Shown: one piece after another, positions 20,517-34,070 of the stretch
Position numbering within the stretch: the stretch's first letter is position 1
Layout: each line of letters opens with the position of its first letter
IMG/VR virus record: IMGVR_UViG_3300031998_000043
Strand: one strand, 5' to 3'
Origin: a virus
Lineage: Duplodnaviria; Heunggongvirae; Uroviricota; Caudoviricetes
DNA: 64,000 bases
Notes under the pieces: generated by a model
Told to the model about the DNA's origin: nothing
Databases searched by the model: none
Seen by the model: the letters and a program-made list of their open reading frames with translations, nothing else
Translations under genes and position numbers: made by a program

Positions 20517-20539
20517 CTGTCAGTAAGCGTTAAAATTAT

Positions 20540-20570
20540 AAGGTCTACCTTCAGGTAGGCCTTTCTTTTT
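20540..20570 (+). terminator. rho-independent terminator (copy 1 of the repeated hairpin family)
   Basis: AGGTCTACC-TTCA-GGTAGGCCT followed by TTCTTTTTTG. Confidence 0.7.
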
Positions 20571-20579
20571 TGTATATTA
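20571..20579 (+). promoter_or_regulatory. GTATATTAT promoter-like motif
   Basis: follows immediately after the terminator T-run; 37 nt upstream of the ATG. Confidence 0.55.
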
Positions 20580-20607
20580 TAAGAGGTACTGTTTAACTAG
20601 GAGACCT

Positions 20608-21405
20608 ATGCCTAAACCAATCTATTCGATGGCACATGCCGACATAATCGTTACTCATAAGTGCAATATGAAAGGAAATTGTCTGCCAACTTGTGCAGAC
20701 AAATTTGTGAATACCTCCGATAAAGAGATAGAGGTATCCACTGTAGAAAAATTTTTAGATTTATTTAGTAAGCATATTGCTAAACGGAAGACTGAGAATG
20801 TGATATTTTATGAACAGCCGCAGATTCTAGTTCTAGGCGGTGAGCCTACTTTGGTCGGATCTGAAAAGCTTATAGCCATAGCCGAAATAGCCAAGAAATA
20901 TGGCTTTGAGAGGATAATCTCATCTAATGGTTTAAACTTCAGGGTTCTTAAAGAGATTCTTCCATATTATGATTCTTTACAAATTACTCTGCAAACTTAT
21001 GGATCTAAAGCGGAGCTTCGCAGACTGCTGGATCTTGGATCAAAAAAGATTAATGTAAAGCTACGTTGCGATGTCAACCTTACTTTTGACGATCTAGTTA
21101 ATTTTATTGCAAGTACTAAAAGTTTTAAGCGCAGAAGTGTAGTTAGATATTGGGATTATAAGAATCATTGTTTTACAAATAAGGATCCGGCTATAGAAGA
21201 ATTTATGAATGCATTAGAATGGAAGCCATTTACAGACAGCATCAGTACTAGTATGTATGCAATGTTTGATGGAGTAAGATTCAAAAAAGAAACGGAAGAA
21301 ATCTTATCTGCCGAAATGCCAGACATTCCTAAACTGTATCCGAGTGGTGTGTACAACTGTACATGGAAAAATGAAGATTCTAATCCTTACTTTGGAGAAT
21401 TGTAA
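20608..21405 (+). CDS. putative radical-SAM-like protein with a non-canonical Cys cluster
   Basis: HKCNMKGNCLPTC (Cx5Cx3C) and a GGEPTL motif; RBS CTAGGAGACCT-ATG. Confidence 0.45.
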   Translation: MPKPIYSMAHADIIVTHKCNMKGNCLPTCADKFVNTSDKEIEVSTVEKFLDLFSKHIAKRKTENVIFYEQPQILVLGGEPTLVGSEKLIAIAEIAKKYGFERIISSNGLNFRVLKEILPYYDSLQITLQTYGSKAELRRLLDLGSKKINVKLRCDVNLTFDDLVNFIASTKSFKRRSVVRYWDYKNHCFTNKDPAIEEFMNALEWKPFTDSISTSMYAMFDGVRFKKETEEILSAEMPDIPKLYPSGVYNCTWKNEDSNPYFGEL

Positions 21406-21411
21406 ACTCTT

Positions 21412-21444
21412 AGGTCTACCTGAAGGTAGGCCTTTTATTTTTCG
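21412..21444 (+). terminator. rho-independent terminator (copy 2 of the repeated hairpin)
   Basis: AGGTCTACC-TGAA-GGTAGGCCT followed by TTTATTTTT. Confidence 0.7.
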
Positions 21445-21464
21445 TACTATGGGATAGCTTGGTT

Positions 21465-21473
21465 GTATATTAA
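21465..21473 (+). promoter_or_regulatory. GTATATTAA promoter-like motif
   Basis: 38 nt upstream of the ATG. Confidence 0.55.
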
Positions 21474-21502
21474 TTTATGCTTAACTAAATCAAGGAGGTA
21501 TC

Positions 21503-22207
21503 ATGGCAAGGCCATTTAAACCACTACCAAATTGGTATCGCGCTGATCTGACAATCGCGGAAATGTCAGAGATAAGCGGACACCAAAAAGGTGGTATTAG
21601 AAAATTTCTACAAAGAAGAAACCTTCCGTATATTAAAAAGAGAATTGATACGGAAGGAGAATTAGAGTGGTATGATCCTTCGTTGACTGTTGATGAAATG
21701 GCAGCGAAGTCGAAATATACTACTACACGCATTTCTTGGATTCTAAATAAAAGGAATCTTCCCTTCAAAGAAAAACCAAAGGAAATTCCAGAATGGTATA
21801 ACCCTAACTCTACTGCTAAAGAAATGGCTATCAGAGCTGGTATTGGGTTAAAGGCGGTATATATCATTCTCAATGCAAAAGGATTGGAATACAAAAAGAT
21901 TACCAAGAAACCCGGAGGCCCAAGACCACGCAAATTTACTATAGATGACTTCATGAAGTTTTATAATAAAAACCTGACTGTACAGGAAATGCATAAGATT
22001 TCTAAAATCCCTACTAGCAATATACGTGGATTTATATCAGTATACAAGCTTCCTTTTAAAAGGCTAGCAAGGAAGCTAATAATCGGAGATTGGTATAGGG
22101 AAGATCGAACAATCTCTGAAATGGCCTATTTAAGTGGGCTTGAACCCGGAACGGTCTCGACTCTACTATATCGGCGGAATTTGCCGCATAGCAGAAAGAA
22201 ATATTAG
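21503..22207 (+). CDS. protein built of five tandem HTH-like repeats of about 40 aa; putative DNA-binding protein
   Basis: five repeats of [ED]WYxxxLTxxEMAxxSG...RRNLP...KK; RBS AAGGAGGTATC-ATG. Confidence 0.55.
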   Translation: MARPFKPLPNWYRADLTIAEMSEISGHQKGGIRKFLQRRNLPYIKKRIDTEGELEWYDPSLTVDEMAAKSKYTTTRISWILNKRNLPFKEKPKEIPEWYNPNSTAKEMAIRAGIGLKAVYIILNAKGLEYKKITKKPGGPRPRKFTIDDFMKFYNKNLTVQEMHKISKIPTSNIRGFISVYKLPFKRLARKLIIGDWYREDRTISEMAYLSGLEPGTVSTLLYRRNLPHSRKKY

Positions 22208-22209
22208 AA

Positions 22210-22241
22210 AGGTCTACCTTCGGGTAGGCCTTTCTTTTTTT
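22210..22241 (+). terminator. rho-independent terminator (copy 3 of the repeated hairpin)
   Basis: AGGTCTACC-TTCG-GGTAGGCCT followed by TTCTTTTTTT. Confidence 0.7.
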
Positions 22242-22264
22242 CGTAAATTTTCTATGATCGCTGA

Positions 22265-22272
22265 TATATTAA
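22265..22272 (+). promoter_or_regulatory. TATATTAA promoter-like motif
   Basis: GATATATTAAAT; 56 nt upstream of the ATG. Confidence 0.45.
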
Positions 22273-22320
22273 ATACTGCGTAGTCTCATAATAACATTAA
22301 CATTCTCAAGGAGGTTCATT

Positions 22321-22599
22321 ATGAAACTTAAGAAAGCAATAGAATTTGGAAAACACTTTGATCAGATTCGTTCTTTCCTCTTTGAACACCATTTCTGGGA
22401 AATTACTGAACTGATTGCGATTGAAGGAGAATTTGACAAGAAAATCTCATTTAGAAGTAATAATGGCTGGTTTGTGCTAAATTGTAAATTAGACGGTAAT
22501 ACTGAAATTTACAAAATAGGGAGAATTTGCGAAACTGGCTATTTCGTAAAGTGTGGACTTGATACGATTTTCAGTGAACTAGGAAAATTGGAGAAATAA
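22321..22599 (+). CDS. hypothetical protein
   Basis: RBS AAGGAGG. Confidence 0.5.
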   Translation: MKLKKAIEFGKHFDQIRSFLFEHHFWEITELIAIEGEFDKKISFRSNNGWFVLNCKLDGNTEIYKIGRICETGYFVKCGLDTIFSELGKLEK

Positions 22600-22659
22600 A
22601 CCATGCATATTGATGACATTAAATGTGGAAAGGTAAAAGTGATCAAGCACTAAGTAATT

Positions 22660-22690
22660 GGCTCACCTTCGAGTGGGCCTTTCTTTTTTG
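22660..22690 (+). terminator. rho-independent terminator (divergent copy of the repeated hairpin)
   Basis: GGCTCAC-cttcga-GTGGGCC followed by TTTCTTTTTTG. Confidence 0.55.
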
Positions 22691-22696
22691 TTTTAT

Positions 22697-22703
22697 ATAT
22701 TAT
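22697..22703 (+). promoter_or_regulatory. TATATTA promoter-like motif
   Basis: TTTTATATATTATAG; 38 nt upstream of the ATG. Confidence 0.5.
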
Positions 22704-22734
22704 AGTAAGTACAATTTAATTCAAAGGAGTAATT

Positions 22735-23604
22735 ATGTCTCTTAAGGACACAGTAAAGTACAAGAAAGTTATCAAGGAGCTTAGAAGCCGTCATGATGCA
22801 AGTCATCCGATTATGTTCATGTGCGTCTGTGGATTTGGCGATGGCTGGCACTACGATCACATGACTGCCAAGGAGCGTCAGGAAGGAATCTCTAAAGAAA
22901 TGAAAGAGAATTTTTCCATTCCTGAAATCAAAGAATTTCTTGAAGATGAAGAAGATGCAAGACTGTTCTTCGGTTTAAATTGCAGTGCCAGCTATGAGCT
23001 TGATGGTATTAACCATTATCGTCATTGGTTTGGACAAAGTAACGAGCGTTGGAAGAGGTGGCTCGAAGTAGAAAAAATTATCGATGATGCTTGCCAGAAA
23101 ATCTATGGAGTACCGTGGGGAAAGCAAGAACAGAAAGTTCCTAATCTCATGGCTCCTATCGGAAAGTACAAGAAGATTCCTTCTACATTGCTTAACAAGA
23201 GGGAACATCTCGACATCCAAGAGCTGAAGACTGAGGAGATCATTCCGTATCTGATAAACCGTCCAGTCTACTGGGAAGATGAATTTGTCGGAACTGTGAT
23301 GAAAGTCGAAAACTTCTCTAAGTATCTATTTACTAGGAGAGTCAAAGATCCGACAGCAGAATGGGACGAGCCTGATGAATACGACAAGGACTTTTACGCA
23401 GACTGTATCACTAGCTTGTATCTTCATGAATATTATTCTGACGTAACAGACAAAAGTATTCTTGAATTCAAAGATTGGATCGGTCTGGTTATTCCTATGA
23501 TGAATTTCTCTGACATCATCGTTACAGATGATCGAATCATTCTGAAAGAAAATACAAGTATTAAGGTCAAGCAAATTGGTGCTGGATCCAACTGGATGTT
23601 CTAA
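22735..23604 (+). CDS. hypothetical protein
   Basis: 289 aa; RBS AAAGGAGTAATT-ATG. Confidence 0.55.
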   Translation: MSLKDTVKYKKVIKELRSRHDASHPIMFMCVCGFGDGWHYDHMTAKERQEGISKEMKENFSIPEIKEFLEDEEDARLFFGLNCSASYELDGINHYRHWFGQSNERWKRWLEVEKIIDDACQKIYGVPWGKQEQKVPNLMAPIGKYKKIPSTLLNKREHLDIQELKTEEIIPYLINRPVYWEDEFVGTVMKVENFSKYLFTRRVKDPTAEWDEPDEYDKDFYADCITSLYLHEYYSDVTDKSILEFKDWIGLVIPMMNFSDIIVTDDRIILKENTSIKVKQIGAGSNWMF

Positions 23605-23680
23605 GGAGCCATAATGAAACAGAAAACACACTCAGAATATATTGCAGAACTGAAAGAAGAACTCCGGAAGAGGAGAAATA

Positions 23681-23905
23681 ATGCGAGAATTGAAAAATGA
23701 AATTGGTGAAGAAATAAAGGAACTCTGTATATTTAATCCTCCTAGACTAATGTATTGCTGGAATGGACTAGAGACACCAGTAGAAAGAGATGTCACTGCG
23801 GTAGCTCTCTGTTATACTGGACTTGTGGCTATCACCTTTGAAAGAGAAATGTTTAATCATTGTGCCGCAATAGGAGAACCCATACAATTAAAGCAGGTAG
23901 AGTGA
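23681..23905 (+). CDS. hypothetical small protein
   Basis: 74 aa; a possible 28-aa upstream ORF at 23613..23699 overlaps its start. Confidence 0.45.
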   Translation: MRELKNEIGEEIKELCIFNPPRLMYCWNGLETPVERDVTAVALCYTGLVAITFEREMFNHCAAIGEPIQLKQVE

Positions 23906-23930
23906 CGGAATGTGCAAATATTACAAGATA

Positions 23931-23961
23931 AGGATTATGCATCCTTATCTTTTTTGTAAAA
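23931..23961 (+). terminator. rho-independent terminator
   Basis: AGATAAGGAT-tatgc-ATCCTTATCT followed by TTTTTTG. Confidence 0.6.
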
Positions 23962-23988
23962 CTGCTCATTGAATAACTGAGAGGATTT

Positions 23989-24753
23989 ATGAGAACATTG
24001 TATGTGGGCGACGTTCATGGCTGTAGTGTTGAGCTATTGATGTTGCTAAAGAAATTCAAGTTTAAGAAGGGCGAAGACAAGCTATACTTTACAGGTGATC
24101 TTATTGACAAGGGTTACAACAATATCCGTGTAATGGAGCTATTTAAGGAGTACGATGGTAAGTCTGTAATGGGCAACCATGAGCAGTACTTTATGGAAAT
24201 GTACGAAAAGCACAATACTAAGAAGTTTGCCGGATCTGTAGCCTCTAACGCTAGAAGAATGGACGGATCTCCTTCTGATGTGTTCCTGAATAAATTTCAT
24301 CTGAATGACTTTAATCAAGCTAGATCTATCTACGATGTTGTAAAGAAGTTTCCATTATACATGAAGACTCCTGATGGAATTCTTGTTCATGCTGGTATCG
24401 ATCCTAGAGAAAAGGACTACAAAAATACTGATAAGAGATTCTTTACAAAGATCAAGAGAATGCTTGACGGCAAGCCTTGGTTTGAAAACTATGAAGGTAA
24501 AACCAGAATCATCTTTGGACACTGGTCTGCCCAAAATTACATTCATAAGGATAATCTCATTTGCCTTGATACTGCTTGTGTGTATGGTTATCATCTGACT
24601 GGATGGTGTCCTGAAGAAGACAAGTTTTATCAAGTCAAGTCTACCATTAAGGAGAAATGGCATAGAAGCGAAGATAGACATGCCAAGAAGGTAGATAAAG
24701 ATGAGTATGACGCAAAGAATATCAAAGAAGATTTGATTGCATCGATGCTTTAA
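23989..24753 (+). CDS. PPP-family metallophosphoesterase (lambda-phosphatase / ApaH-like Ser/Thr phosphatase)
   Basis: GDVHG, GDLIDKG, GNHE and a later HAG/GHW motif, all in the canonical order. Confidence 0.8.
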   Translation: MRTLYVGDVHGCSVELLMLLKKFKFKKGEDKLYFTGDLIDKGYNNIRVMELFKEYDGKSVMGNHEQYFMEMYEKHNTKKFAGSVASNARRMDGSPSDVFLNKFHLNDFNQARSIYDVVKKFPLYMKTPDGILVHAGIDPREKDYKNTDKRFFTKIKRMLDGKPWFENYEGKTRIIFGHWSAQNYIHKDNLICLDTACVYGYHLTGWCPEEDKFYQVKSTIKEKWHRSEDRHAKKVDKDEYDAKNIKEDLIASML

Positions 24754-24761
24754 TCTAATAA

Positions 24762-24796
24762 AAGATAAGGACTTAGTTCTTATCTTTTATTTTTGT
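24762..24796 (+). terminator. rho-independent terminator
   Basis: AAGATAAGGAC-tta-GTTCTTATCTT followed by TTATTTTTG. Confidence 0.55.
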
Positions 24797-24803
24797 ATAT
24801 TAA
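24795..24803 (+). promoter_or_regulatory. GTATATTAA promoter-like motif
   Basis: 46 nt upstream of the ATG at 24841. Confidence 0.55.
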
Positions 24804-24840
24804 ACCATGTCTAACATTACAAATTGTAAAGGTGACTAAA

Positions 24841-25713
24841 ATGAAACCAGCAGAAAACCATTTAATAAATTTAATGGAGAAAGTTAATTATAAGAGCTTT
24901 AAGCTCATCAATGATTTGAAACGCATAGTTAGATTTAACAAAAAATTCAAGATTCCAGAAATAGAAACATTCCTGTCCGATCTTAATACGGCAATGTTTG
25001 ATTATATGTATCCGAATTATCTCAATCCACTATTTACGGCATTTCCGAAATTCTCCAGATACTGCATGGCTATTTACGTCATGTACCTTAAGGAGAGATA
25101 TTTTGAGAATTCCCTAGAAATATGTAGCGAAGTTATAGAATACAATTACAAGTATAACTCAATCCTTGTTGGTGGAGCTTGTACAGTTGAACAAATAAAA
25201 TCAAGTATGCAATTATTTGATGAAGGAAAATTAATTTTAGGAAGGCTTAGGAACTCCATTGATGACCTGTGTAGATTCTTGAGAGAGACTAAAAATGGAC
25301 GTTTTGATCATTTTGACTTGTTCAACCAAAAGGTCATAGACAGTTTTACTGAAGCTAGGCGAGATAAACTGGGAAATCCTAGAGAGGGATCATCTTGGAA
25401 TCAGCTGGTATTGTTCCTGTTTAAAGCCAAGACTGTACAAAATGCGAATCTGATTAATTCAATAAGGATGGCTTTTCAGGCTGGCAACCTATCCTTTTTA
25501 GAAGATCTTACTGTCTCAAAAATGGTGGACGTAGCTGTAGCAGAGATTCAGCGCAATCCTATGTTTTATCTCAATTATTATAAGAAGCAAGCTGCGGAAG
25601 ATGAAAGCCACATGGGTGAACCGGGTGACTGGTATCTTTGGCCTCATCCAACGATCTGGATTAGAGATAAGATTCTATCCGAGTTTGCTGACCTTGAAGA
25701 TGAAAATTATTAA
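24841..25713 (+). CDS. hypothetical protein
   Basis: RBS AAGGTGACTAAA-ATG; the TTG at 24793 in the ORF track lies within the promoter. Confidence 0.55.
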   Translation: MKPAENHLINLMEKVNYKSFKLINDLKRIVRFNKKFKIPEIETFLSDLNTAMFDYMYPNYLNPLFTAFPKFSRYCMAIYVMYLKERYFENSLEICSEVIEYNYKYNSILVGGACTVEQIKSSMQLFDEGKLILGRLRNSIDDLCRFLRETKNGRFDHFDLFNQKVIDSFTEARRDKLGNPREGSSWNQLVLFLFKAKTVQNANLINSIRMAFQAGNLSFLEDLTVSKMVDVAVAEIQRNPMFYLNYYKKQAAEDESHMGEPGDWYLWPHPTIWIRDKILSEFADLEDENY

Positions 25714-25721
25714 TTGTAGAT

Positions 25722-25755
25722 AAAGGAAAGAGTAATCTTTCCTTTTATTTTTTGT
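25722..25755 (+). terminator. rho-independent terminator
   Basis: AAAGGAAAGA-gtaa-TCTTTCCTTT followed by TATTTTTTG. Confidence 0.6.
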
Positions 25756-25774
25756 AGATTTCTGTATTCAAGAA

Positions 25775-25783
25775 GTATATTAA
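25775..25783 (+). promoter_or_regulatory. GTATATTAA promoter-like motif
   Basis: 43 nt upstream of the ATG. Confidence 0.55.
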
Positions 25784-25817
25784 TAGATAGTCATAAACAC
25801 AACAACAGGAGGTTAAT

Positions 25818-26312
25818 ATGGCTGATGAACCACACGAACGTAAGTTTCTTCTCTCCGAACTTGCGTTTAACGAAATTGTTCGTGATATGGAAGTGGAATT
25901 CCTTATTGCAATAGAGCAATTTCAGGAGAGATGCATGAAATTCAGAAAGGGATACTACCTTCTTCCGGAGAACATGAAATATGTGGAATTCTACCATGAA
26001 TATATCAGGATTGGTAAGTTTTTCCATATGACTGAGCTTACCGAAGGGGAGTGGGAGGCGGCTAAGGAGCTTGTAAAGCAACCTGAAACTGTCATCCTGC
26101 GAAAACGAAGGTATGTAGGACATAAGGATGGCTATGATTTGGACGTAGATCAGTTCTTTCATCCTACAAAATTGTTCATGCTGGAAGTTTCCAGTAAGGA
26201 CAAGCCCTTGAAGGATTTCATTCCATCATGGTCAGTGATCAAAGAAGTCACCGACGATCCTGCATACAAGAATGTGAATATTGCTGCGGGATCTCTTAAG
26301 GAAAGCCAGTGA
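25818..26312 (+). CDS. hypothetical protein
   Basis: RBS ACAGGAGGTTAAT-ATG. Confidence 0.55.
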   Translation: MADEPHERKFLLSELAFNEIVRDMEVEFLIAIEQFQERCMKFRKGYYLLPENMKYVEFYHEYIRIGKFFHMTELTEGEWEAAKELVKQPETVILRKRRYVGHKDGYDLDVDQFFHPTKLFMLEVSSKDKPLKDFIPSWSVIKEVTDDPAYKNVNIAAGSLKESQ

Positions 26313-26329
26313 CAGTGGCTTTTCTTTTC
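26302..26329 (+). terminator. weak terminator overlapping the stop codon
   Basis: AAAGCCA-gtgacag-TGGCTTT followed by TCTTTTC. Confidence 0.4.
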
Positions 26330-26330
26330 A

Positions 26331-26338
26331 CATATTAA
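26331..26338 (+). promoter_or_regulatory. CATATTAA promoter-like variant
   Basis: 37 nt upstream of the ATG at 26368. Confidence 0.4.
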
Positions 26339-26367
26339 TTCACAATAACTACAACAAAGGAGTTCTT

Positions 26368-26466
26368 ATGTACAAAATTCTCAACGCAGTTGCCATTAAT
26401 TTGGCTGTCATCATCACTTTGGACACCATAGAAAAAATCTGGCTGAAGTGGAGGAGACATGAATAA
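26368..26466 (+). CDS. 32-aa hydrophobic mini-protein
   Basis: RBS AAAGGAGTTCTT-ATG; MYKILNAVAINLAVIITLD. Confidence 0.35.
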   Translation: MYKILNAVAINLAVIITLDTIEKIWLKWRRHE

Positions 26467-26830
26467 TGAGATAAAGAGAGTCGTACTCTCTGATCACGCA
26501 AAAGATCGATGTATTGAAAGATGCATCGATACTTATATGTGTGATTATGCACGTAAGTACGGCAAAAGGATTAGAAGAGATTGTTATGTTCTCCACATGA
26601 AGGACATTCCGGATGAAGTGTTGTCAAAGATGACCCCAGAGTACAAAAAGAAGCTCGATAAGACGCTTCCGATATGCTCGATCTGGGCGATCAATGACGA
26701 CATGTACGTCTGCTTGACTGCATGGCGGATATTCGCTAATGCGACTAAGAAAAGGTTGAATTGGCGAAAAGGACAACCGGGTAAAAAGATTCATAGCTAC
26801 AAGGAATTAAGAAGGAAGAACGCTACATAG
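26459..26830 (+). CDS. hypothetical basic protein
   Basis: 123 aa; ATGA overlap. Confidence 0.5.
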   Translation: MNNEIKRVVLSDHAKDRCIERCIDTYMCDYARKYGKRIRRDCYVLHMKDIPDEVLSKMTPEYKKKLDKTLPICSIWAINDDMYVCLTAWRIFANATKKRLNWRKGQPGKKIHSYKELRRKNAT

Positions 26831-26847
26831 CGTTCTTTCTTTTTTAT
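26818..26847 (+). terminator. rho-independent terminator
   Basis: GAACGCTA-ca-TAGCGTTC followed by TTTCTTTTTT. Confidence 0.6.
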
Positions 26848-26852
26848 ATTAA
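26845..26852 (+). promoter_or_regulatory. TATATTAA promoter-like motif
   Basis: 42 nt upstream of the ATG. Confidence 0.5.
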
Positions 26853-26886
26853 GACTAGATTAACTCTTCACTGAAAGCGAGGTTTT

Positions 26887-27195
26887 ATGAAAGTAAAGAT
26901 CAAGGATATGGAGATTGAATGCACTGTTGATGAATTCGAGGAGCTTTATACTCGTGGAATTCTCGACAATAAAATGTCTCCCGCCGAAGCCCTAAAAGAA
27001 TTCATTATAGACAATCCTCCAAAGGATAAGTCTATCACACCCATAAAGTCTTTTCCGGGTGTAGTTGCTGTATATGGTTGTCAGATGCCTGAAGCCGTAG
27101 CTTTGTATGGATGCCAAGTGAGCGATCCTAACATATTCCGTACAGAGATCACTTCTACATCTGGTATTAAGACAGAGAAAGACGATTATCAATAA
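26887..27195 (+). CDS. hypothetical protein
   Basis: 102 aa; RBS GCGAGG. Confidence 0.5.
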   Translation: MKVKIKDMEIECTVDEFEELYTRGILDNKMSPAEALKEFIIDNPPKDKSITPIKSFPGVVAVYGCQMPEAVALYGCQVSDPNIFRTEITSTSGIKTEKDDYQ

Positions 27196-27226
27196 TAGAA
27201 AGAGCTTTTGCTCTTTCTATTTTTTG
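27196..27226 (+). terminator. rho-independent terminator
   Basis: TAGAAAGAGC-TTTT-GCTCTTTCTA followed by TTTTTTG. Confidence 0.6.
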
Positions 27227-27247
27227 TAATTTTTATGAGTCTGTAGA

Positions 27248-27255
27248 TATATTAA
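27248..27255 (+). promoter_or_regulatory. TATATTAA promoter-like motif
   Basis: GATATATTAAAT; 43 nt upstream of the ATG. Confidence 0.5.
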
Positions 27256-27290
27256 ATAGTAGCTTAACCTTATAACAACGGAGGTCTAAT

Positions 27291-27494
27291 ATGGTAGGCG
27301 ACGTCAGATATATCCGATTCACGGACACAGAAGGAGAAATTCATATCGTTAAGTTTGATGCGATCAAACAGGCTATCAAGTGGTCAAAAATTGACGAATA
27401 CGAATTTGATATCGGTGACAGTGAAGATGGAAAAATCAAGATTACTGAGGATACGTTCAACTATTTCCAGAAGCTCGCTGGCTTCGATAACTAA
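27291..27494 (+). CDS. hypothetical small protein
   Basis: RBS ACGGAGGTCTAAT-ATG. Confidence 0.5.
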   Translation: MVGDVRYIRFTDTEGEIHIVKFDAIKQAIKWSKIDEYEFDIGDSEDGKIKITEDTFNYFQKLAGFDN

Positions 27495-27496
27495 AG

Positions 27497-27524
27497 GAAA
27501 GCCCAATAGGGCTTTCTTTTTTTA
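27497..27524 (+). terminator. rho-independent terminator
   Basis: GAAAGCCC-AATA-GGGCTTTC followed by TTTTTTT. Confidence 0.6.
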
Positions 27525-27529
27525 TAAGA

Positions 27530-27538
27530 GTATATTAA
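27530..27538 (+). promoter_or_regulatory. GTATATTAA promoter-like motif
   Basis: 34-43 nt upstream of the start. Confidence 0.55.
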
Positions 27539-27563
27539 GAAAAGCCTTTGAATTTTAACATGG

Positions 27564-28001
27564 ATGGTTACTATGAAAACTACTGACGGAAAAGAATTAG
27601 AAGAAGCCGTAGTTGGCGAAGGTTCAATGCCCAATAATGAGACATTGGAAAAGCTCATGGAACAAGGTAAAGCTGTATATACCGGAATCTATGAGTTCTT
27701 TTGCGATTATGTCTACAAACAGGAAAAAGACATTTCTAGAATGACAAAAGAGGAATTCAATCAAGTTGTATTTACATTCATGACGGAACTTCCACATACA
27801 CTGAACAAGCACTACATCGAGATTTACAAAGCATTCTTGGAACCATATCTTAAGAGCGATGAAGACCTTAATATGATCTACACATATATAGGGAATCTTT
27901 ATCTTCAGCCTTTAGTTATCAAGGTAGCTACCGAGTTTATTGAAAAGAGACAGATTGATTTTCGAAAACCTAATAATGGTTTCAGAGAAGTTCTGAACTA
28001 A
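27564..28001 (+). CDS. hypothetical protein
   Basis: 145 aa; the start could be 27564 or 27573. Confidence 0.5.
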   Translation: MVTMKTTDGKELEEAVVGEGSMPNNETLEKLMEQGKAVYTGIYEFFCDYVYKQEKDISRMTKEEFNQVVFTFMTELPHTLNKHYIEIYKAFLEPYLKSDEDLNMIYTYIGNLYLQPLVIKVATEFIEKRQIDFRKPNNGFREVLN

Positions 28002-28019
28002 ACTAAGGTAGAGGGCAAG

Positions 28020-28214
28020 ATGATACAGAATAAAGTGCATGTTATTGTTGACGAATTCCTAGATCCTCTAGGAGAAAATCCAACATACGAATTCCATATT
28101 GGATATACGCAGCTTGATAAAGCCAAGGAAGAGCTGCCGAAGCACGCCAGCATTGCCAAGAAAAAGGCTGGATACAGTACTTCATTTATCCAAGAAGTCA
28201 CGATCTTTGAATAG
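28020..28214 (+). CDS. hypothetical small protein
   Basis: 64 aa; RBS GGTAGAGGGCAAG-ATG. Confidence 0.45.
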   Translation: MIQNKVHVIVDEFLDPLGENPTYEFHIGYTQLDKAKEELPKHASIAKKKAGYSTSFIQEVTIFE

Positions 28215-28236
28215 ACCTAGACTAATCATCAAAGTG

Positions 28237-28265
28237 GGGAAGACGCAAGTCTTCCTCATTTTTTA
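28237..28265 (+). terminator. rho-independent terminator
   Basis: GGGAAGAC-GCAA-GTCTTCCT followed by CATTTTTTAT. Confidence 0.5.
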
Positions 28266-28267
28266 TT

Positions 28268-28276
28268 GTATATTAT
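28268..28276 (+). promoter_or_regulatory. GTATATTAT promoter-like motif
   Basis: 33 nt upstream of the ATG at 28301. Confidence 0.55.
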
Positions 28277-28300
28277 AAAGTGTCTTTTAATGGAGTTATC

Positions 28301-28711
28301 ATGAACCATATAAACCTTACTGACAATCCAAGATATGAAGCCTTGAAAGAACAAGAGAAAAATACTATGCTCCGGGATATGCCTTTAGACTGTTTGCATA
28401 TCAAGGACATGTGGGAGAGAGACGGACAATGGCCAGCTCCTAAGCTTCCTGCAGCATTCTCTTATTATGTTTCGAATCTGAAGTTTGATAATGAATATAT
28501 AGGTGTTCATTACTACTTCTGTGTCTCTGGTATACTGTGTGACTTTGAACAGTGGTACAATGATGAAGATGCAGAAGTTGATAAGTTCGTAAATCTCTAC
28601 AATGCTTTGATCCATAAGGATCCACCAGAGATCATCGAAAGTGATATCGAAAACATCTATAACTGGGCTGAACGACTTCAGCATAAAGTTTGCCTGATGG
28701 CTGCGGATTGA
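28301..28711 (+). CDS. hypothetical protein
   Basis: RBS GGAG 7 nt upstream; the ATG at 28280 in the ORF track lies inside the RBS. Confidence 0.5.
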   Translation: MNHINLTDNPRYEALKEQEKNTMLRDMPLDCLHIKDMWERDGQWPAPKLPAAFSYYVSNLKFDNEYIGVHYYFCVSGILCDFEQWYNDEDAEVDKFVNLYNALIHKDPPEIIESDIENIYNWAERLQHKVCLMAAD

Positions 28712-28926
28712 TGATGGACGATACTTGCTATAAATGTGGTAAACCGGCAGTATGCAAGAATCTCATAGCACGAGTTGGACATATGACTACAGTTTCGAAT
28801 AGTGATCATAGCGATATAAAGCATGAGATCATTCAGACTTGGGTTGATACTCCAATGTGCGAATCTTGTCAAAATGCTCTTGTAGAATACCTTAATGGAG
28901 AACAAAATGAAATACGCGGTTATTGA
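28711..28926 (+). CDS. zinc-ribbon mini-protein
   Basis: TGATG overlap; CYKCGK...CESCQ. Confidence 0.45.
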   Translation: MMDDTCYKCGKPAVCKNLIARVGHMTTVSNSDHSDIKHEIIQTWVDTPMCESCQNALVEYLNGEQNEIRGY

Positions 28927-28996
28927 ATTTCTCAAGAATTTCTTTCTCATCGGAGTAGGATTCTTTCTTGGGAAAGTGACAACATTCGGAGGATAA

Positions 28997-29248
28997 ATGA
29001 AAGCCTTCATATATAAACTCATTCCAGCTATAATCGTAGGGCTGGTTGCCATGAACACAATCTTTATTATCATAGCCCTTAGTGGATGCAACGGTGCAGA
29101 TGCCGCTGAAAGTCGCCATTATCAACTTTGGATCGACGATAAGCTTATCTGCACTGGTATGTACTACTATGTGTCTAGTGGAATATACAGATTCAACTGT
29201 GATGATGGTAGTATAGTTGTGGGATTGCACAATGCGATCATAAAATAA
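28997..29248 (+). CDS. small secreted or membrane protein
   Basis: RBS GGAGGATAA-ATG; N-terminal hydrophobic segment with a possible lipobox-like ALSGCNG. Confidence 0.45.
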   Translation: MKAFIYKLIPAIIVGLVAMNTIFIIIALSGCNGADAAESRHYQLWIDDKLICTGMYYYVSSGIYRFNCDDGSIVVGLHNAIIK

Positions 29249-29258
29249 AGGAAAACAC

Positions 29259-30185
29259 ATGCAGAAAACATCAACAAAACAATTCCAGCAGAGTGACATA
29301 CGCAGTTGCTTTAGGCTGGACTTTTCTGGCCCGTCTTTCAGACTGTTCTACAAAGACAATAGTGGAACATATCACGAAATTGAAAACAAGGCAGATCTTA
29401 TTCATGAGATCTGCTTCTCTAGGGATCCCAATACCGAAGGTCATCCCTTGTATATCTACCACAGGTTCTCCCATCCCAAATACGGGATCATTATCGACAA
29501 GACTAAGGATAATGATATCTATGTGGAATTCCAGAAGCACTTCTTCCGTCTTGAAAAGGGTTTGATGGAATGCTTTTCTCTCAATGCTGGCTGTTCTATC
29601 ACGATCCGAGAAAAGTTTGGCAAATCGGATAACTACGAGACATACCGAGTTCTGAACAATTACACTATGAGCAAGTTTGTTTATAGAGTGATTGATGGCG
29701 AATGTAAGTTGTCCGACAAACTTGTTGAAGATAAATGGTACAAGTACAAGATTGGAGTCTTCGAATCTGAAGAACATCGCCCTGAGTACAGTGACTACCG
29801 TTCAGCTGTGTTCTACGAGAAGGCCAAGATCGAAGGTGAAGACTGCACTCCTATGGCCAATTATGTTTGTCTTACCAGTGCACAGAGGGCACAGATCGAC
29901 GAACTCGTTAAGAATTTCAAGGAAAAGCTTGACGAGATTGGCGCAAAGGTCTATCTTGACGTTGAGTATGACAAACTTGCATTTATCTCCAGCGATGCAA
30001 AGCTTCCTGAAAACACGACATATATGATTCGTGATTACAGTGATCCGGATGCAGAGAATGAAGTGTCTATTCCCGTGAGTGCCTTCTACGTACCTGATGA
30101 CAGGTTTATGACATATTTGAATGACTGTACTGATATTAGGGCAGTCTATCAGAAACCTCCTCAGGCTGTCACTGAAGAAAAGTAA
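29259..30185 (+). CDS. hypothetical protein
   Basis: 308 aa; RBS AAAGGAAAACAC-ATG. Confidence 0.55.
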   Translation: MQKTSTKQFQQSDIRSCFRLDFSGPSFRLFYKDNSGTYHEIENKADLIHEICFSRDPNTEGHPLYIYHRFSHPKYGIIIDKTKDNDIYVEFQKHFFRLEKGLMECFSLNAGCSITIREKFGKSDNYETYRVLNNYTMSKFVYRVIDGECKLSDKLVEDKWYKYKIGVFESEEHRPEYSDYRSAVFYEKAKIEGEDCTPMANYVCLTSAQRAQIDELVKNFKEKLDEIGAKVYLDVEYDKLAFISSDAKLPENTTYMIRDYSDPDAENEVSIPVSAFYVPDDRFMTYLNDCTDIRAVYQKPPQAVTEEK

Positions 30186-30202
30186 TCCCTAAACATCAAA
30201 CA

Positions 30203-30235
30203 GAAACCGTTACGAATGTAGCGGTTTCTTTTTTA
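30203..30235 (+). terminator. rho-independent terminator
   Basis: GAAACCGTTAC-GAAT-GTAGCGGTTTC followed by TTTTTT. Confidence 0.65.
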
Positions 30236-30241
30236 TATTAA
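30234..30241 (+). promoter_or_regulatory. TATATTAA promoter-like motif
   Basis: 33 nt upstream of the ATG. Confidence 0.5.
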
Positions 30242-30266
30242 TCAATGACTTCTATACGAGGTAATA

Positions 30267-30656
30267 ATGGAAACATCTGAAGAACTGGAAGAGCCGAAAG
30301 AAGATTTCGTAGCTCCGCACTTAGATACTGATATAGACAGGATCGAAGAGTCATTCAAGTATACAGATGCGCAAGGAAAAGAAGTGGAAGTGACAGTAGA
30401 GTTTCTTCCAAACGATTGCGAGAAAGCCTCAAATAACCTAGCTACTCTTGTACAGCCGATTACTGGAATCAGAGTCGGAGACAGAGAGAAGGTCAGATCC
30501 ATGATTAACACAATCCTAGGTGATTACAAGTGCTGCTTCTCAATAAGGATTCTGCCTAGAGAAGTGGAACTAAAGTTCACAGATTGTGAGGAAGTCATTG
30601 GAAAAATGATCACGGAGTTTGTACAGGTTCTCAATGAAAATCCTAGTAAAAACTAA
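30267..30656 (+). CDS. hypothetical protein
   Basis: RBS ACGAGGTAATA-ATG. Confidence 0.5.
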   Translation: METSEELEEPKEDFVAPHLDTDIDRIEESFKYTDAQGKEVEVTVEFLPNDCEKASNNLATLVQPITGIRVGDREKVRSMINTILGDYKCCFSIRILPREVELKFTDCEEVIGKMITEFVQVLNENPSKN

Positions 30657-30900
30657 AGGTGGAAAGGCTATCACTGGAGAAATGACATTAGTATGTCTGA
30701 ATCCAGATGGTGGTGGCATGATTTGCCTATCTTACCATAAAAACTTTGACATTAGTTTTGAAAATATTGAAGAGATCTATATTATACAGAATAATAGGCT
30801 CAAAGCCCTTAATCTTGAAAATATGGATTGCAAAGATATCTTTGACCAATTATCTTTGTATTATTTCCGAGATAGAGGCGAATACAACTTCACCATTTAA
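30634..30900 (+). CDS. hypothetical protein
   Basis: internal ATG (MKILVKTKGG) overlapping the previous stop. Confidence 0.45.
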   Translation: MKILVKTKGGKAITGEMTLVCLNPDGGGMICLSYHKNFDISFENIEEIYIIQNNRLKALNLENMDCKDIFDQLSLYYFRDRGEYNFTI

Positions 30901-30912
30901 CAAAGGAAAGAA

Positions 30913-31191
30913 ATGGAAGCAGGAACGTTCGGTTGGGCTCTCGAACAGCTTAAGGCTGGTAAGAAAGTCCAGAGAAAAGAATGGAACGGAAAGGGTATGT
31001 TTTTGACTCTTCAACCCGGATCCATCGTCAAAGGTGAAATGATGCGTAATGAACCCGCTAGAGAGTTCTATACTGGAAAAGATTGTGTGATCCAGCCACA
31101 CATTGATATGAAGGCAGCTGATGATAGTTATACTGTCGGCTGGACGGCTAGCCAAGTTGATATGCTTGCTAGCGATTGGCAGCTTGCCTAA
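30913..31191 (+). CDS. DUF2829/Tad2-like mini-protein (candidate Thoeris anti-defence sponge)
   Basis: WALEQLKAGKKVQRKEWNGKGMFL ... GWTASQVDMLASDW matches my recollection of the DUF2829 pattern; RBS AAAGGAAAGAA-ATG. Confidence 0.5.
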   Translation: MEAGTFGWALEQLKAGKKVQRKEWNGKGMFLTLQPGSIVKGEMMRNEPAREFYTGKDCVIQPHIDMKAADDSYTVGWTASQVDMLASDWQLA

Positions 31192-31211
31192 TAACAAAAA
31201 GGAAACAAACA

Positions 31212-32831
31212 ATGGAACAAATCATAAATGCCCAAAACATCGGCATCGCCGCTGGCGTTGCTATCGTCATCATTCTGGCCATCGTATTTATCCTTGGCTA
31301 TGTTAAGGCACCTCCTGACAAGGTGTTTATCATTTCTGGTTTCCGTAAGGAGCCGAAATTCGTTACCGGAACTTCTGCGATCCGTATTCCGTTCCTTCAG
31401 CAGAAAGATGAACTGACACTCGCTCTTATTAAAGTTAACGTTGTGACTGATGAAGACATTCCGACTTCGGAATATATTAACATCAGGGTGGATTCTAATG
31501 TTAACGTGAAGATTGATAAGACAAAGCTTGCAATTGCAGCCCAGCACTTCTTAAACGCAAATGAAGGTCAAATATCTAAATTCGTGTGTGATGTTCTTCA
31601 GGGCAACCTTCGTGAAATTGTTGGTCAGATGAAACTCGAAGACATGATTAAAGACCGCACTGAGTTTAACAAGCGAGTCACTGAAAACGTCAAACCCGAC
31701 CTTGCCGCTATGGGTCTTGAACTTGTATCTTTCAATGTTCAGAACTTCTCCGACAAGAATAGTGTGATTGTGAACATGGGTATTGACAACGTAGAAACCA
31801 TTAGAAAGACTGCCGAAATTGCAAAGGCCAATGCCCAGCGTGATATTGCTGTTGCTAAGGCCAAGGCAGACCTCGAAGAAAATGATGCCCGTGTTAAGGC
31901 TGATACCACGATCGCTGAACGCAACAATGCTCTCGAAATTAAGCAGCATGAACTCAAGCAAGCAGAACAGACAAAGAAAGCCGTTGCTGACTCTGCATAT
32001 AAGATTGAGCTTGCGAACCAGCAGAAGGACATCAATGTGGCTAATGCTAAGGCTGAAACGGCAAGACAAGAACAGCTTATTCTCGTGCGTGAGAAGGAAG
32101 TTGAAGTTAAGGAAAAAGAACTTAACGCCAATGTCATCAAGCCCGCAGAAGCCGAAAAGACTGCTGTCATTCTTCAAGCTGAAGCTGCCCGTGAAGCTGA
32201 AATCATCAATGCTGATGCTAACCTTAAGAAGACCGAGAAGAATGCTGAAGCTAATCTCATCAAGGAAACTAAAGATGCAGAAGCCCAGCTTATCAAGGAA
32301 ACCAAAGACGCAGAAGCCGAACTTATCAAGAATCAGAAGGCTTCTGAAGCCAAGCGTTACAATGATGAACAGACCGCTATCGGTACTGAAGCTCTAGCCA
32401 AGGCAAATCTTGTCAAGGCTAAGAACGAAGCTGAAGGTATCGAGGCTAACGGTAAGGCTACTGCATCTGCCATTGAAGCTAAGGGTAAGGCTGAAGCTGA
32501 AGCTCTTGACAAGAAGGCAGATGCTATGAAGAAGTATGGCGATGCTGCTATCATGGATATGCAGCTTCAGGTATCCAAAGCTCTTGTTGAAAAGATGCCT
32601 GAGATCGCTGCTGCCGTTGCTGCTCCGTTTGCTAAGGTCGGTAAGATCGAAATGTATGGCTCTGGTAATACCAAGATGCTTGCAGAAGATATTACCAGCA
32701 TTATCAATCAGGTAAGCGGTGGCTTGTCTTCTACCCTTGGGATTGATGGCAAGATGTTCTTGAGCTCTGCTCTTGCAAATATTGCTACTAAGGGCGCAAC
32801 CTCTACAGCATCTGCACCTGCAAAGAAATAA
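31212..32831 (+). CDS. flotillin / SPFH (band-7) family membrane protein
   Basis: N-terminal transmembrane segment IGIAAGVAIVIILAIVFILGY; SPFH core; long Glu/Ala/Lys coiled-coil (EAxxEAE repeats); GC-enriched codon usage. Confidence 0.8.
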   Translation: MEQIINAQNIGIAAGVAIVIILAIVFILGYVKAPPDKVFIISGFRKEPKFVTGTSAIRIPFLQQKDELTLALIKVNVVTDEDIPTSEYINIRVDSNVNVKIDKTKLAIAAQHFLNANEGQISKFVCDVLQGNLREIVGQMKLEDMIKDRTEFNKRVTENVKPDLAAMGLELVSFNVQNFSDKNSVIVNMGIDNVETIRKTAEIAKANAQRDIAVAKAKADLEENDARVKADTTIAERNNALEIKQHELKQAEQTKKAVADSAYKIELANQQKDINVANAKAETARQEQLILVREKEVEVKEKELNANVIKPAEAEKTAVILQAEAAREAEIINADANLKKTEKNAEANLIKETKDAEAQLIKETKDAEAELIKNQKASEAKRYNDEQTAIGTEALAKANLVKAKNEAEGIEANGKATASAIEAKGKAEAEALDKKADAMKKYGDAAIMDMQLQVSKALVEKMPEIAAAVAAPFAKVGKIEMYGSGNTKMLAEDITSIINQVSGGLSSTLGIDGKMFLSSALANIATKGATSTASAPAKK

Positions 32832-32870
32832 AAGAATCTCCTTTGTCGCTAATAACGACGGTTAAAGTAA

Positions 32871-32913
32871 AGAGAGGGGCCGATGCCTTTTGTGCCCCTC
32901 TCTTTTTTTTTTC
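32871..32913 (+). terminator. rho-independent terminator
   Basis: AGAGAGGGGC-13 nt loop-GCCCCTCTCT followed by ten T residues. Confidence 0.65.
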
Positions 32914-32935
32914 GTAGGTTTCTGTGATCCGAGTA

Positions 32936-32943
32936 TATATTAA
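32936..32943 (+). promoter_or_regulatory. TATATTAA promoter-like motif
   Basis: GAGTATATATTAAATA; 41 nt upstream of the ATG. Confidence 0.5.
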
Positions 32944-32976
32944 ATAAAGCGTATATCATATCAACAAGGAGGCATC

Positions 32977-33579
32977 ATGATTTACGAGTACAAAATGACG
33001 GAAGAAAATGCCGATAAAATTATCAAGCTAATCGAAAATCATAAAATCCATCGGATAGAATATACCGAAGGATCTGCTATGCCATACTGTTCAGTTCGTC
33101 TGGGCAGACATGGCGAAATCTACTTGACGGGAAATTTGTGGACAGGGATTCCTTCTCTTATGAATGCTATAGGAGATCTTCTTGACAGATTCCACGTATT
33201 TAAGGTTGAAAGAATTAACTATATTGATTTCTTCGACTTTGAATCTGGTGGAAACAAGATATTCCTTAGGGAAGACGAGAAATTTCTGCCAAAGAATAAA
33301 ATAGAGACCAAAAGGCTCTATTATAGGACGTATGGCGAAATTGTAATGATGTATAGGGCATCGAGAATAGACCTCTCACAGAAGAAGTCTAGATATAAAG
33401 GGTACCCTAAACACGACCTTGTCGGTAAGTTCGAAGCACGTATCGAAATGCTTAAAGCAGAGATAAAGTGCAGAGAGCTTAAGGACGAGTACGAAAAAAG
33501 AAAAAGCGGAGATATGGCTGAATATAGAAAAAAGATGGCCAAGATCCGTCGTACAAGAAATAAAAGGGTGGCAGCTTAA
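32977..33579 (+). CDS. hypothetical protein with a basic C-terminus
   Basis: RBS AAGGAGGCATC-ATG. Confidence 0.55.
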   Translation: MIYEYKMTEENADKIIKLIENHKIHRIEYTEGSAMPYCSVRLGRHGEIYLTGNLWTGIPSLMNAIGDLLDRFHVFKVERINYIDFFDFESGGNKIFLREDEKFLPKNKIETKRLYYRTYGEIVMMYRASRIDLSQKKSRYKGYPKHDLVGKFEARIEMLKAEIKCRELKDEYEKRKSGDMAEYRKKMAKIRRTRNKRVAA

Positions 33580-33597
33580 GCTGCTTCCCTTTTTTCT
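33564..33597 (+). terminator. rho-independent terminator overlapping the stop codon
   Basis: palindrome GCAGCTTAAGCTGC flanked by AAGGG/CCCTT, then TTTTTTC. Confidence 0.6.
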
Positions 33598-33610
33598 ATT
33601 TTTAGAAAAA

Positions 33611-33618
33611 TATATTAA
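33611..33618 (+). promoter_or_regulatory. TATATTAA promoter-like motif
   Basis: 44 nt upstream of the ATG. Confidence 0.5.
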
Positions 33619-33654
33619 ATTTAGCCTAACTTAACCAATACAGGAGATTAAAAA

Positions 33655-34059
33655 ATGAAAATGTTTACTCGTAAAGAATTTGACGAGCATTGTGACTTTT
33701 ATTTGCGATACCTCAAGCATGTCTGGTATCGCGATAATAACGAGAATGGGAATAATATCTCATTCATCAATATCACCGGTGGTAGCTTTAATAAGGAGCA
33801 TGATACTTTTACTCCGAAGTGTACCATTATCACTGTCAAGACCAATGGGAATACCTTTGAAGGTATTGACATCAAGCGCAATGTTGATATTTCGGCAGCT
33901 GCTACTGTCAATGTTGAAATCGACGAACGTAAATATGCCGAACCTAAGGAATTTGCCAAGATGATTTCTGAAGATTGGCATCGTGACATCTATGACAGAA
34001 TAACAGAAAAAGATGTGCGTGACTTTATCAAGGAAACGATTCGCACTCACAACTTTTAG
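33655..34059 (+). CDS. hypothetical protein
   Basis: RBS CAGGAGATTAAAAA-ATG. Confidence 0.55.
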   Translation: MKMFTRKEFDEHCDFYLRYLKHVWYRDNNENGNNISFINITGGSFNKEHDTFTPKCTIITVKTNGNTFEGIDIKRNVDISAAATVNVEIDERKYAEPKEFAKMISEDWHRDIYDRITEKDVRDFIKETIRTHNF

Positions 34060-34070
34060 AGGCCAATCAA

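Follow-up and report, generated by a model that had tools for sequence, protein, structure and literature searches.

In the Bacillus jumbo phage AR9, 41 early transcription start sites have been mapped by differential RNA sequencing (dRNA-seq) and primer extension, and they lie behind the sequence AAATATATATTAT-N6-G(+1) (PMC5312081). The early transcripts of this phage accumulate without protein synthesis and infection goes on under rifampin, and the authors assigned this transcription to the injected virion RNA polymerase (RNAP) (PMC5312081). In the MarsHill-type Staphylococcus jumbo phages, TATATTAT is found upstream of 29 genes, where it marks predicted early promoters, and a review describes an AT-rich motif of about 10 nt near position -10 of early genes or operons in every RNAP-encoding jumbo phage. 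A second kind of early unit is known from the T4-like phages, in which PeSL cassettes, composite early-promoter/terminator units located in hyperplastic regions, mediate modular shuffling; recombination at these cassettes and mini-circles have been demonstrated (PMC2839356, PMC4122927). Here we describe a locus that shares features with both. It lies between 20.5 and 34.3 kb of a 64,000-nt stretch of phage DNA (IMG/VR record IMGVR_UViG_3300031998_000043; the whole stretch is referred to as the window), in which a hairpin with a T-run, the motif TATATTAW-N5-G and a ribosome-binding site recur in front of small genes. In our judgment these units are most likely early promoters of an uncultivated AR9-like jumbo phage, read by its virion RNAP and each placed behind the terminator of the prior gene.

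The window belongs to an uncultivated jumbo phage, one of the AR9/PBS1-like phages that encode RNA polymerases. Its TerL protein (gene 53693-55663) is 41-42% identical to those of the Bacillus jumbo phages AR9, PBS1, Goe21 and BpSp, as compared with 33% for the Staphylococcus jumbo phages and 28% for phiKZ-like phages. The open reading frames (ORFs) of the window were also compared with AR9, of whose 251-kb genome the first 250 kb were covered. The window was found to encode homologs of the major capsid protein, tail sheath, DNA polymerase and gp211 of AR9 and of one of its virion proteins, and the genes for the virion RNAP subunit, TerL, the virion protein and the tail sheath are in synteny as in AR9. 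The RNAP subunit gene (52899-53630, minus strand) encodes a 243-aa homolog of the virion RNAP beta C-terminal subunit. This product has 51% identity with the RNAP domain of AR9 gp077, and its match to phrog_3233 ("RNA polymerase beta subunit") is full-length (5e-41). The AR9 protein is the beta C-terminal subunit of the virion RNAP, which in the Bacillus phages is fused to an HD domain (PMC7598289). A PDB sequence search with the 243-aa subunit gave no match. The major capsid gene is on the minus strand (34916-36757, phrog_20655); a 649-aa plus-strand ORF at 34919-36868 was rejected as a gene because it is the antisense of the capsid gene, and its tblastn match is to the AR9 capsid antisense too.

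Gene coordinates were curated over 20517-34292, which leaves 1401 nt of intergenic DNA there (31.5% GC). Over the entire window, the heptamer TATATTA is not in excess (23 observed versus 17.6 ± 4.1 expected from shuffles), and the signal therefore lies in its placement. Thirteen of the 16 plus-strand matches in the curated region are intergenic (cassettes 1 to 6 and 8 to 14, located below), and no minus-strand match is. The density in intergenic DNA is thus 38.6-fold that in coding DNA (Fisher p = 5e-11), and a first-order Markov simulation of the island's intergenic DNA gave a mean of 0.54 sites and a maximum of 5 (5000 runs), as compared with the 13 observed. One CATATTAA variant with a CATATTA core at 26331, also intergenic and on the plus strand, brings the island total to 14. 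An earlier reading of this DNA (the original prediction) had spoken of at least 15 occurrences of a hairpin/T-run/motif/ribosome-binding-site layout. The layout is real and it recurs, as all 14 positions then listed in this interval hold the motif within 1-3 nt, but the count is 14. That reading had also named an equal frequency of the motif inside coding regions as a sign of compositional artefact, and the intergenic excess shows the opposite. Variants had been proposed elsewhere as well: 16554 (plus) and 58534-58527 (minus) are exact matches; 7852 and 15202 correspond to TATATAAT-N5-G variants; and 50001 is a poor match (TATATGGA at 50004).

The 14 island sites were aligned together with 16554 (plus) and 58534 (minus). 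TATATTAW is invariant in 15 of these 16 sites, the eighth base being A in 13 and T in three. Every site has a purine 13 nt past its first T (G in 13/16, A in 3/16; 1.45 bits), and two of the three A sites have a G one base further on, so that the full form of the motif is TATATTAW-N5-G. A start codon with an AGGAG-type ribosome-binding site follows 32-56 nt after the motif. Neither the purine or G at this position nor the T-run-YGTA lying 23 nt upstream of some octamers, which is considered below, was part of the original prediction.

A hairpin and a T-run precede every one of the 15 plus-strand sites (-9 to -36 kcal/mol, with z-scores mostly from -2 to -5.7), and the 16-35 kb region contains 38 terminator-like sites versus 11.2 expected from shuffles, a 3.4-fold excess. 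Four of the terminators have a nearly identical stem (repeat family D1) and composite modules form the families D2, D3 and D5; families D1-D3 and D5 cover the island cassettes. This strict alternation of terminators and promoters fits the insulated, independently transcribed units that had been proposed. The accompanying idea, that the T-run acts as an UP-like element, was rejected. The T-run is 13-23 nt away from the motif in 6-7 sites with the motif unaltered (0-7 nt from the octamer elsewhere), no terminator whatsoever is present at 58534 (minus), and the T-run is mostly absent in AR9 promoters. The variable distance and the terminator-less site argue that the T-run is part of the terminator and not an UP-like part of the promoter.

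All island cassettes are on the plus strand. The T-run abuts the octamer in cassette 1 (hairpin 20540-20563 of family D1, TATATTAT 20573-20580, putative +1 G 20586, then gene 20608-21405), in cassette 5 (hairpin 24757-24791, TATATTAA 24796-24803, G 24809, then gene 24841-25713), in cassette 8 (hairpin 26816-26837, TATATTAA 26845-26852, G 26858, then gene 26887-27195) and in cassette 12 (hairpin 30202-30229, TATATTAA 30234-30241, G 30247). The last of these is followed by genes 30267-30656, 30619-30900 (for which an internal ATG at 30682 is possible as the start) and 30913-31191 and by an SPFH/flotillin gene (31212-32831). Cassette 4 consists of a hairpin (22660-22679), a T-run, TATATTAT (22696-22703) and G 22709, and stands before genes 22735-23604, 23614-23700 and 23681-23905; cassette 10 has the same layout (hairpin 27497-27516, T-run, TATATTAA 27531-27538, G 27544) before genes 27564-28001 and 28020-28214. 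The variant cassette 7 (hairpin 26300-26324, CATATTAA 26331-26338, A 26344) precedes genes 26368-26466 and 26459-26830, and cassette 11 (hairpin 28231-28262, TATATTAT 28269-28276, G 28282) precedes five genes, 28301-28711, 28711-28926, 28907-28996, 28997-29248 and 29259-30185. At the end of the array, cassette 14 (hairpin 33566-33586, T-runs, TATATTAA 33611-33618, G 33624) is followed by genes 33655-34059 and 34071-34292 and by a bidirectional terminator at 34291-34321. Outside the island, a plus-strand cassette has its hairpin at 16510-16540, a T-run, TATATTAA at 16554-16561 and a putative +1 G at 16567, ahead of gene 16584-16832.

The remaining five cassettes carry, in addition, an upstream element. 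T-run-YGTA is located exactly 23 nt upstream of the octamer in 6 of the 16 aligned sites. In cassette 2, hairpin 21412-21433 is followed by a T-run with CGTA at 21443, TATATTAA at 21466-21473, G 21479 and gene 21503-22207. In cassette 3, which belongs to families D1 and D2, hairpin 22206-22235 is followed by a T-run with CGTA at 22242, TATATTAA at 22265-22272, G 22278 and genes 22321-22599 and 22603-22653. Cassette 6 has hairpin 25722-25745, a T-run with TGTA at 25753, TATATTAA at 25776-25783, A 25789 and G 25790 before gene 25818-26312. Cassette 9 (family D2) has hairpin 27194-27221, a T-run with TGTA at 27225, TATATTAA at 27248-27255, A 27261 and G 27262 before gene 27291-27494, and cassette 13 (D2) has hairpin 32871-32903, a T-run with CGTA at 32913, TATATTAA at 32936-32943 and G 32949 before gene 32977-33579. 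The sixth case is the minus-strand site (CGTA 58557-58554, TATATTAA 58534-58527, G 58521), which lies ahead of a 68-aa gene (58363-58157). The sequence of the spacer between YGTA and octamer drifts and even shows internal shifts, and its overall length is constant. The chance of finding YGTA at -23 so often in the window is small (p about 2e-8 after correction). The statement of the original prediction that the motif has no upstream partner is therefore right with respect to a -35 element but not with respect to this one.

A corresponding element is present in AR9. Its form there is CCGTATTAAAAT, 24 nt upstream; (C)CGTATTAAAAT is located exactly 24 nt upstream of TATATTAT in eight annotated early promoters (39437, 39689, 56740, 85555, 94758 on the minus strand, 139387, 201678 and 213831) and also in a variant promoter at 116661. 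CGTA occurs at -24 in 9 of the 41 early promoters of the published table (p about 1e-19), and half of the genome-wide CGTAT[TC]A[AT]A matches in AR9 sit in such a promoter placement. Since the AR9 element is not joined to a terminator, the element appears to be tied to the promoter. We did not find it described in the transcriptome study of AR9 (PMC5312081). AR9 promoters with CCGTA have a median 5' signal of 702, versus 280 for those without it, which is not a significant difference (p = 0.19). YGTA lies at about -36 relative to the putative start, and we infer that it is an optional element for upstream recognition or for promoter strength.

T-run-YGTA modules are also found behind terminators with no TATATTA 23 nt downstream, at 1743-1765 (TGTAATTTTCTATGCTCC), 23955-23977 (TGTAAAACTGCTC) and 50002-50024 (TGTATATGGAACTTTCTAATGAA), upstream of a Stealth_CR2 gene, a phosphatase gene and a 937-aa gp211-like gene, respectively. 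The second of these belongs to the only island unit that lacks the core motif; it has a terminator at 23925-23951 and T-run-TGTAAAACTG at 23955, both ahead of the NinI-like phosphatase gene (23989-24753). At 50002, the module has the same sequence in one of the relatives described below (L132) despite a different preceding hairpin. These lone modules may represent a second promoter type. As the module stands by itself at 1743, and does so in a weaker version at 23955 and 50002, it is possible that it acts as a second promoter or an operator. The TTTCTRTG part of the module was also considered as a general late promoter, which is unsupported, its matches being mostly in coding sequence.

Three relatives of the window phage (235, 242 and 179 kb; 41-44% GC) were found in IMG/VR via TerL (78-88% identical) and the major capsid protein (83-98% identical); searches for related loci with the SPFH protein and with the phosphatase yielded no relatives. 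At orthologous intergenic sites in the relatives, the octamer and the downstream G are kept and the flanks have diverged. At the 48883 site in L132 and L133, the hairpin stem has been altered by compensatory changes beside an invariant GATAATTTTATATAAAGA, and the cassette 12 ortholog in the closest relative (L136) likewise shows a compensatory stem change. At 58534 (minus) in L132 and L133, GTAAAATT and TATATTAA-N3-ATG are kept around 15 diverged nt without indels. New sites in the relatives have the form TATATTAW-N5-G, with G in 9 of 10, and several of them show the 23-nt YGTA arrangement. In L138, one of the relatives with a TerL of 78% identity, two TATATTAA promoters at 15487 (minus) and 15494 (plus) face apart with 6 nt between them (TTAATATATGACTGTATATTAA). 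An exact-pattern scan of IMG/VR for TTTTTTGTATATTAA returned 120 loci, which is essentially the chance level, with many giant-virus bins among them and none related to the window by tblastn.

The relatives also bear on the question of which polymerases this lineage encodes. Using a profile made from the non-virion RNAP beta-C proteins of AR9, S6, AgentSmith and Desertfox, we found a 630-aa homolog in the closest relative (IMGVR_UViG_3300031992_000008, 235 kb), 36% identical to that of AR9 (E = 7e-114). Its gene is collinear with the contig of the window, about 3 kb past the covered part of that contig, and TATATTAATAGGAG sits 63 nt upstream of it; TATATTAT occupies the same position before the RNAP gene in six other AR9-like contigs. 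Genes required for the second polymerase have to be transcribed by the first one, and the motif is thus located before the non-virion RNAP gene as predicted for a virion RNAP promoter. A search of the rest of the genome for multisubunit RNAP genes had been proposed as a check, and it has yielded the virion beta-C homolog in the window and the non-virion subunit in the closest relative. Since RNAP subunits are encoded and the core is that of the mapped AR9 promoters and of the predicted Staphylococcus jumbo phage promoters, the phage-specific promoter class of the original prediction is supported, and a phage RNAP is most likely what recognizes it.

On this evidence, and with AR9 as the model, early transcription of the island would proceed as follows: a multisubunit RNAP packaged in the virion and injected with the DNA binds TATATTAW-N5-G, with the octamer centred around -10; RNA synthesis begins at the conserved G, 13 nt past the first T; and the predicted leaders, 19-43 nt long, carry the ribosome-binding site. 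Each unit between 20.5 and 34.3 kb is closed by an intrinsic terminator, with its T-run either abutting the promoter that follows or separated from it by 4-23 nt. The region would then consist of about 14 early units in a row, of one to five small genes each, every one with a start and a stop of its own, with the T-run belonging to the terminator and a subset of the promoters having YGTA 23 nt upstream as a second element. The basic phenomenon has already been described for this phage group; what is new is the lineage and, to a modest degree, the fixed-spacing element shared with AR9 and the PeSL-like chaining.

Several points weigh against this interpretation. The sequence directly shows the placement and conservation of the motif, the terminators, the affiliation of the phage and the RNAP genes, whereas the reading polymerase, the site of initiation and the early timing are taken over from AR9, whose TerL has no more than about 41% identity, and the spacing from octamer to G is 5 nt in the window versus 6 in AR9. 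In 84 kb covered of the 134-kb source contig (ENA ERZ27257204 k141_4853316), a single RNAP subunit gene was found, the virion beta-C homolog, and none for the other four virion RNAP subunits. No upstream CGTA peak was seen across 79 loci of other jumbo phages, and the YGTA sites of the window may be partly paralogous (family D2), so that the p-values overstate their independence. Finally, TATATT agrees with the sigma-A hexamer TATAAT at 5/6 positions, the critical A-11 and T-7 among them, and a perfect TATAAT is contained in each TATATAAW variant (7855, 15202, 48883, 34837 minus and 41699 minus).

The last point leads to the alternative that survives best, namely that the cassettes are host sigma-A promoters of a "-10-only" type, in which the holoenzyme takes TATATT or TATAAT for a -10 hexamer and initiates at the conserved G, possibly aided by AT-rich surroundings. 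The distance of 7 nt from the hexamer to the G is normal for a discriminator, a perfect hexamer is present in the 7855, 15202 and 48883 variants, and the AR9 authors could not fully exclude some transcription by the host RNAP (PMC5312081). Within the island, however, TATAAT is found at none of the 14 sites, and the eight positions of the octamer are near-invariant, which is tighter than usual for a -10 element. No conserved -35 and no TGn in register are present (only two island sites, 27224 and 26309, have a weak 4-of-6 match to -35), and sigma-70-type sites are not enriched in the 16-35 kb region (61 versus 55.5 expected); for the same reasons, recognition by a sigma factor or through an extended -10, as suggested in the original prediction, is unlikely. 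Moreover, the octamer marks genes whose transcription in AR9 needs no new protein synthesis, during an infection that goes ahead when rifampin blocks the host RNAP, and the motif upstream of the non-virion RNAP gene in the relatives is what is expected of virion RNAP promoters. We therefore consider a host promoter of this kind improbable.

Less probable still is the possibility that the motif is read by the non-virion phage RNAP or another phage factor made after infection, with the island as a middle or continuously expressed class. Six sites do carry a second module, T-run-YGTA-TTTCTRTG, which is also found in the lone positions mentioned above and which could provide dual control as in the continuously expressed AR9 genes (PMC5312081). 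The known promoters of non-virion polymerases are unrelated to the motif, being AACA-N6-TA/G in AR9 (PMC5312081) and TATG in phiKZ (from the review), whereas the octamer is the early consensus of AR9 and MarsHill. In addition, the motif before the non-virion RNAP subunit gene of the closest relative would be needed before that enzyme exists. That the motif is a functionless by-product of AT-rich spacers and terminator tails is hardly conceivable despite the insignificant whole-window count and the low intergenic GC content, as it is effectively refuted by the composition-matched expectation, the strand bias of 13 to 0, the fixed distances to the conserved G and to start codons, and the retention of the motif in relatives while its flanks diverge.

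With virion RNAP promoters as the preferred interpretation, the island (genes 20608 to 34292, plus strand) comprises about 29 mostly small genes in about 14-15 transcription units of one to five genes, and is most likely a hypervariable early-gene array of about 14 insulated units. Most of its genes have no family match; the exceptions are a gene with helix-turn-helix (HTH) repeats (21503-22207), the NinI-like phosphatase gene, a phrog_6660 gene (25818-26312) and the SPFH/flotillin gene, which in AR9 likewise lies within an early cluster. The HTH protein is 234 aa long and consists of about five tandem HTH-like units of about 45 aa, with weak matches to HTH_17 and phrog_14131. Identity with the closest relative is 98% for the capsid protein but just 51% for the SPFH protein; the other island proteins are 34-80% identical or absent, and the gene order has changed. 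In the relatives with a TerL of 78% identity, the block with the SPFH gene is inverted with respect to the capsid gene. By blastn, little of the island still matches the closest relative at the DNA level, and the terminator-promoter cassettes belong to what does, cassette 6 being one example. Megablast of 20-34 kb against GenBank phages gave no match. The term "moron island" used in the original prediction does not fit, since these are probably early genes of a lytic jumbo phage in a hypervariable region and not prophage morons. Because the cassettes resemble one another, while the genes that separate them differ from relative to relative, the cassettes may serve as PeSL-like recombination points. 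A more far-reaching proposal, which we regard as doubtful, has two separate parts: AR9-like virion RNAP promoters would be bipartite, with YGTA or CCGTA 23-24 nt upstream (about -36 to -38) as an optional, -35-like element conserved from AR9 to the window lineage; and the cassettes would be PeSL-like recombination modules that drive the turnover of early host-takeover genes.

Variants of the motif are found at other places in the window behind terminators. TATATAAT-N5-G occurs on the plus strand at 7855-7868, upstream of gene 7886-8248, and at 15202-15215, upstream of gene 15251-15427. TATATAAA-N5-G occurs at 48883-48896 (plus), behind the terminator that follows the DNA polymerase gene, and at 34837-34824 (minus), behind the terminator of the major capsid gene (34900-34869) and upstream of the small genes 34799-34590 and 34593-34303.

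Some further features of the window and its surroundings were recorded. At 6000-8273 of the locus L008, about 4 kb before the window begins, lies a gene for an anaerobic ribonucleotide reductase (NrdD, with an ATP-cone). This phage-encoded enzyme suggests that the host is anaerobic, and the strong Shine-Dalgarno sites speak for a Firmicute; an anaerobic Firmicute is the probable host. The tail sheath protein (58688-62986) has 1432 aa versus 987 in AR9, the aligned parts being about 100 N-terminal aa, 929-1021 and about 290 C-terminal aa, with a large insertion between. The approximately 100 nt before the sheath gene (58598-58687, plus strand) are almost invariant in relatives with TerL identities of 78-88%, and the adjoining spacer diverges; this stretch is a candidate for a late promoter or a regulatory leader. 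Another leader, about 75 nt long, is duplicated at 43222-43295 and 44418-44492 (CCATTGAAATACGGGTCGCGACCGAAGAAACCTGTA...AAACGTTTAAC...AAGGATA), in front of the paralogous genes 43296-44366 and 44493-45569; it holds a GGGTCGCGACC palindrome and has no match in Rfam, and Rfam and tRNA scans of the window found nothing. Two adjacent paralogs on the minus strand (39635-40438 and 40591-41319) are each about 36% identical to two AR9 loci (at about 219.2 kb and about 207.3 kb), a duplicated family that is conserved across these phages.

The findings place an uncultivated lineage of about 235-240 kb, apparently from anaerobic habitats, among the jumbo phages that carry RNA polymerases. An early-promoter consensus and a map of about 20 early transcription units should aid annotation and the choice of candidate host-takeover genes. 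The second fixed-spacing element shared with AR9 would be a concrete, testable clue to how virion polymerases that lack a sigma factor recognize promoters, and, with terminators and promoters so densely chained in a hypervariable region, the PeSL concept of regulatory cassettes as shuffling points is carried beyond the T4-like phages.

How the island relates to known systems can then be summarized in three comparisons. Like sigma-A and sigma-70 -10 elements, its motif has an AT-rich core about 7-13 nt upstream of a purine start and agrees with the -10 hexamer at 5/6 positions, but it differs from them by the missing -35 and TGn, by the invariance of all eight positions and by never containing TATAAT inside the island. 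With AR9 it shares the TATATTA core, the fixed downstream G, the lack of a -35 or sigma-type partner, the location upstream of small early genes and, in a relative, of a non-virion RNAP subunit gene, an encoded virion RNAP subunit homolog, and a CGTA element 23-24 nt upstream in a subset of the promoters of both phages. It differs from AR9 in its eighth base, which is mostly A in the window (13/16) and T in AR9, in the absence of the AAATA extension, in a purine at -1 and a T at -3, and in that nearly all window promoters are fused to an intrinsic terminator, as compared with about 3/34 (judged by eye) in AR9; the AR9 promoters were mapped by transcripts, whereas those of the window are predicted from sequence. 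The resemblance to PeSLs is one of arrangement. In both, short terminator/early-promoter composites are present in many copies (here 14 in 13.8 kb) before small ORFan-type genes in a hypervariable region, and the cassettes keep DNA-level similarity where flanking genes differ and gene order is shuffled between relatives. The stem-loop of a PeSL is often inside the promoter, whereas the hairpin in the window always comes before it, and recombination has been shown for PeSLs but is only surmised for the window cassettes. As PeSL promoters have a strong sigma-70 consensus (-35 and -10) for the host RNAP and those of the window are of the jumbo-phage virion RNAP type, the window cassettes are an architectural analogue of PeSLs, not a member of that class.

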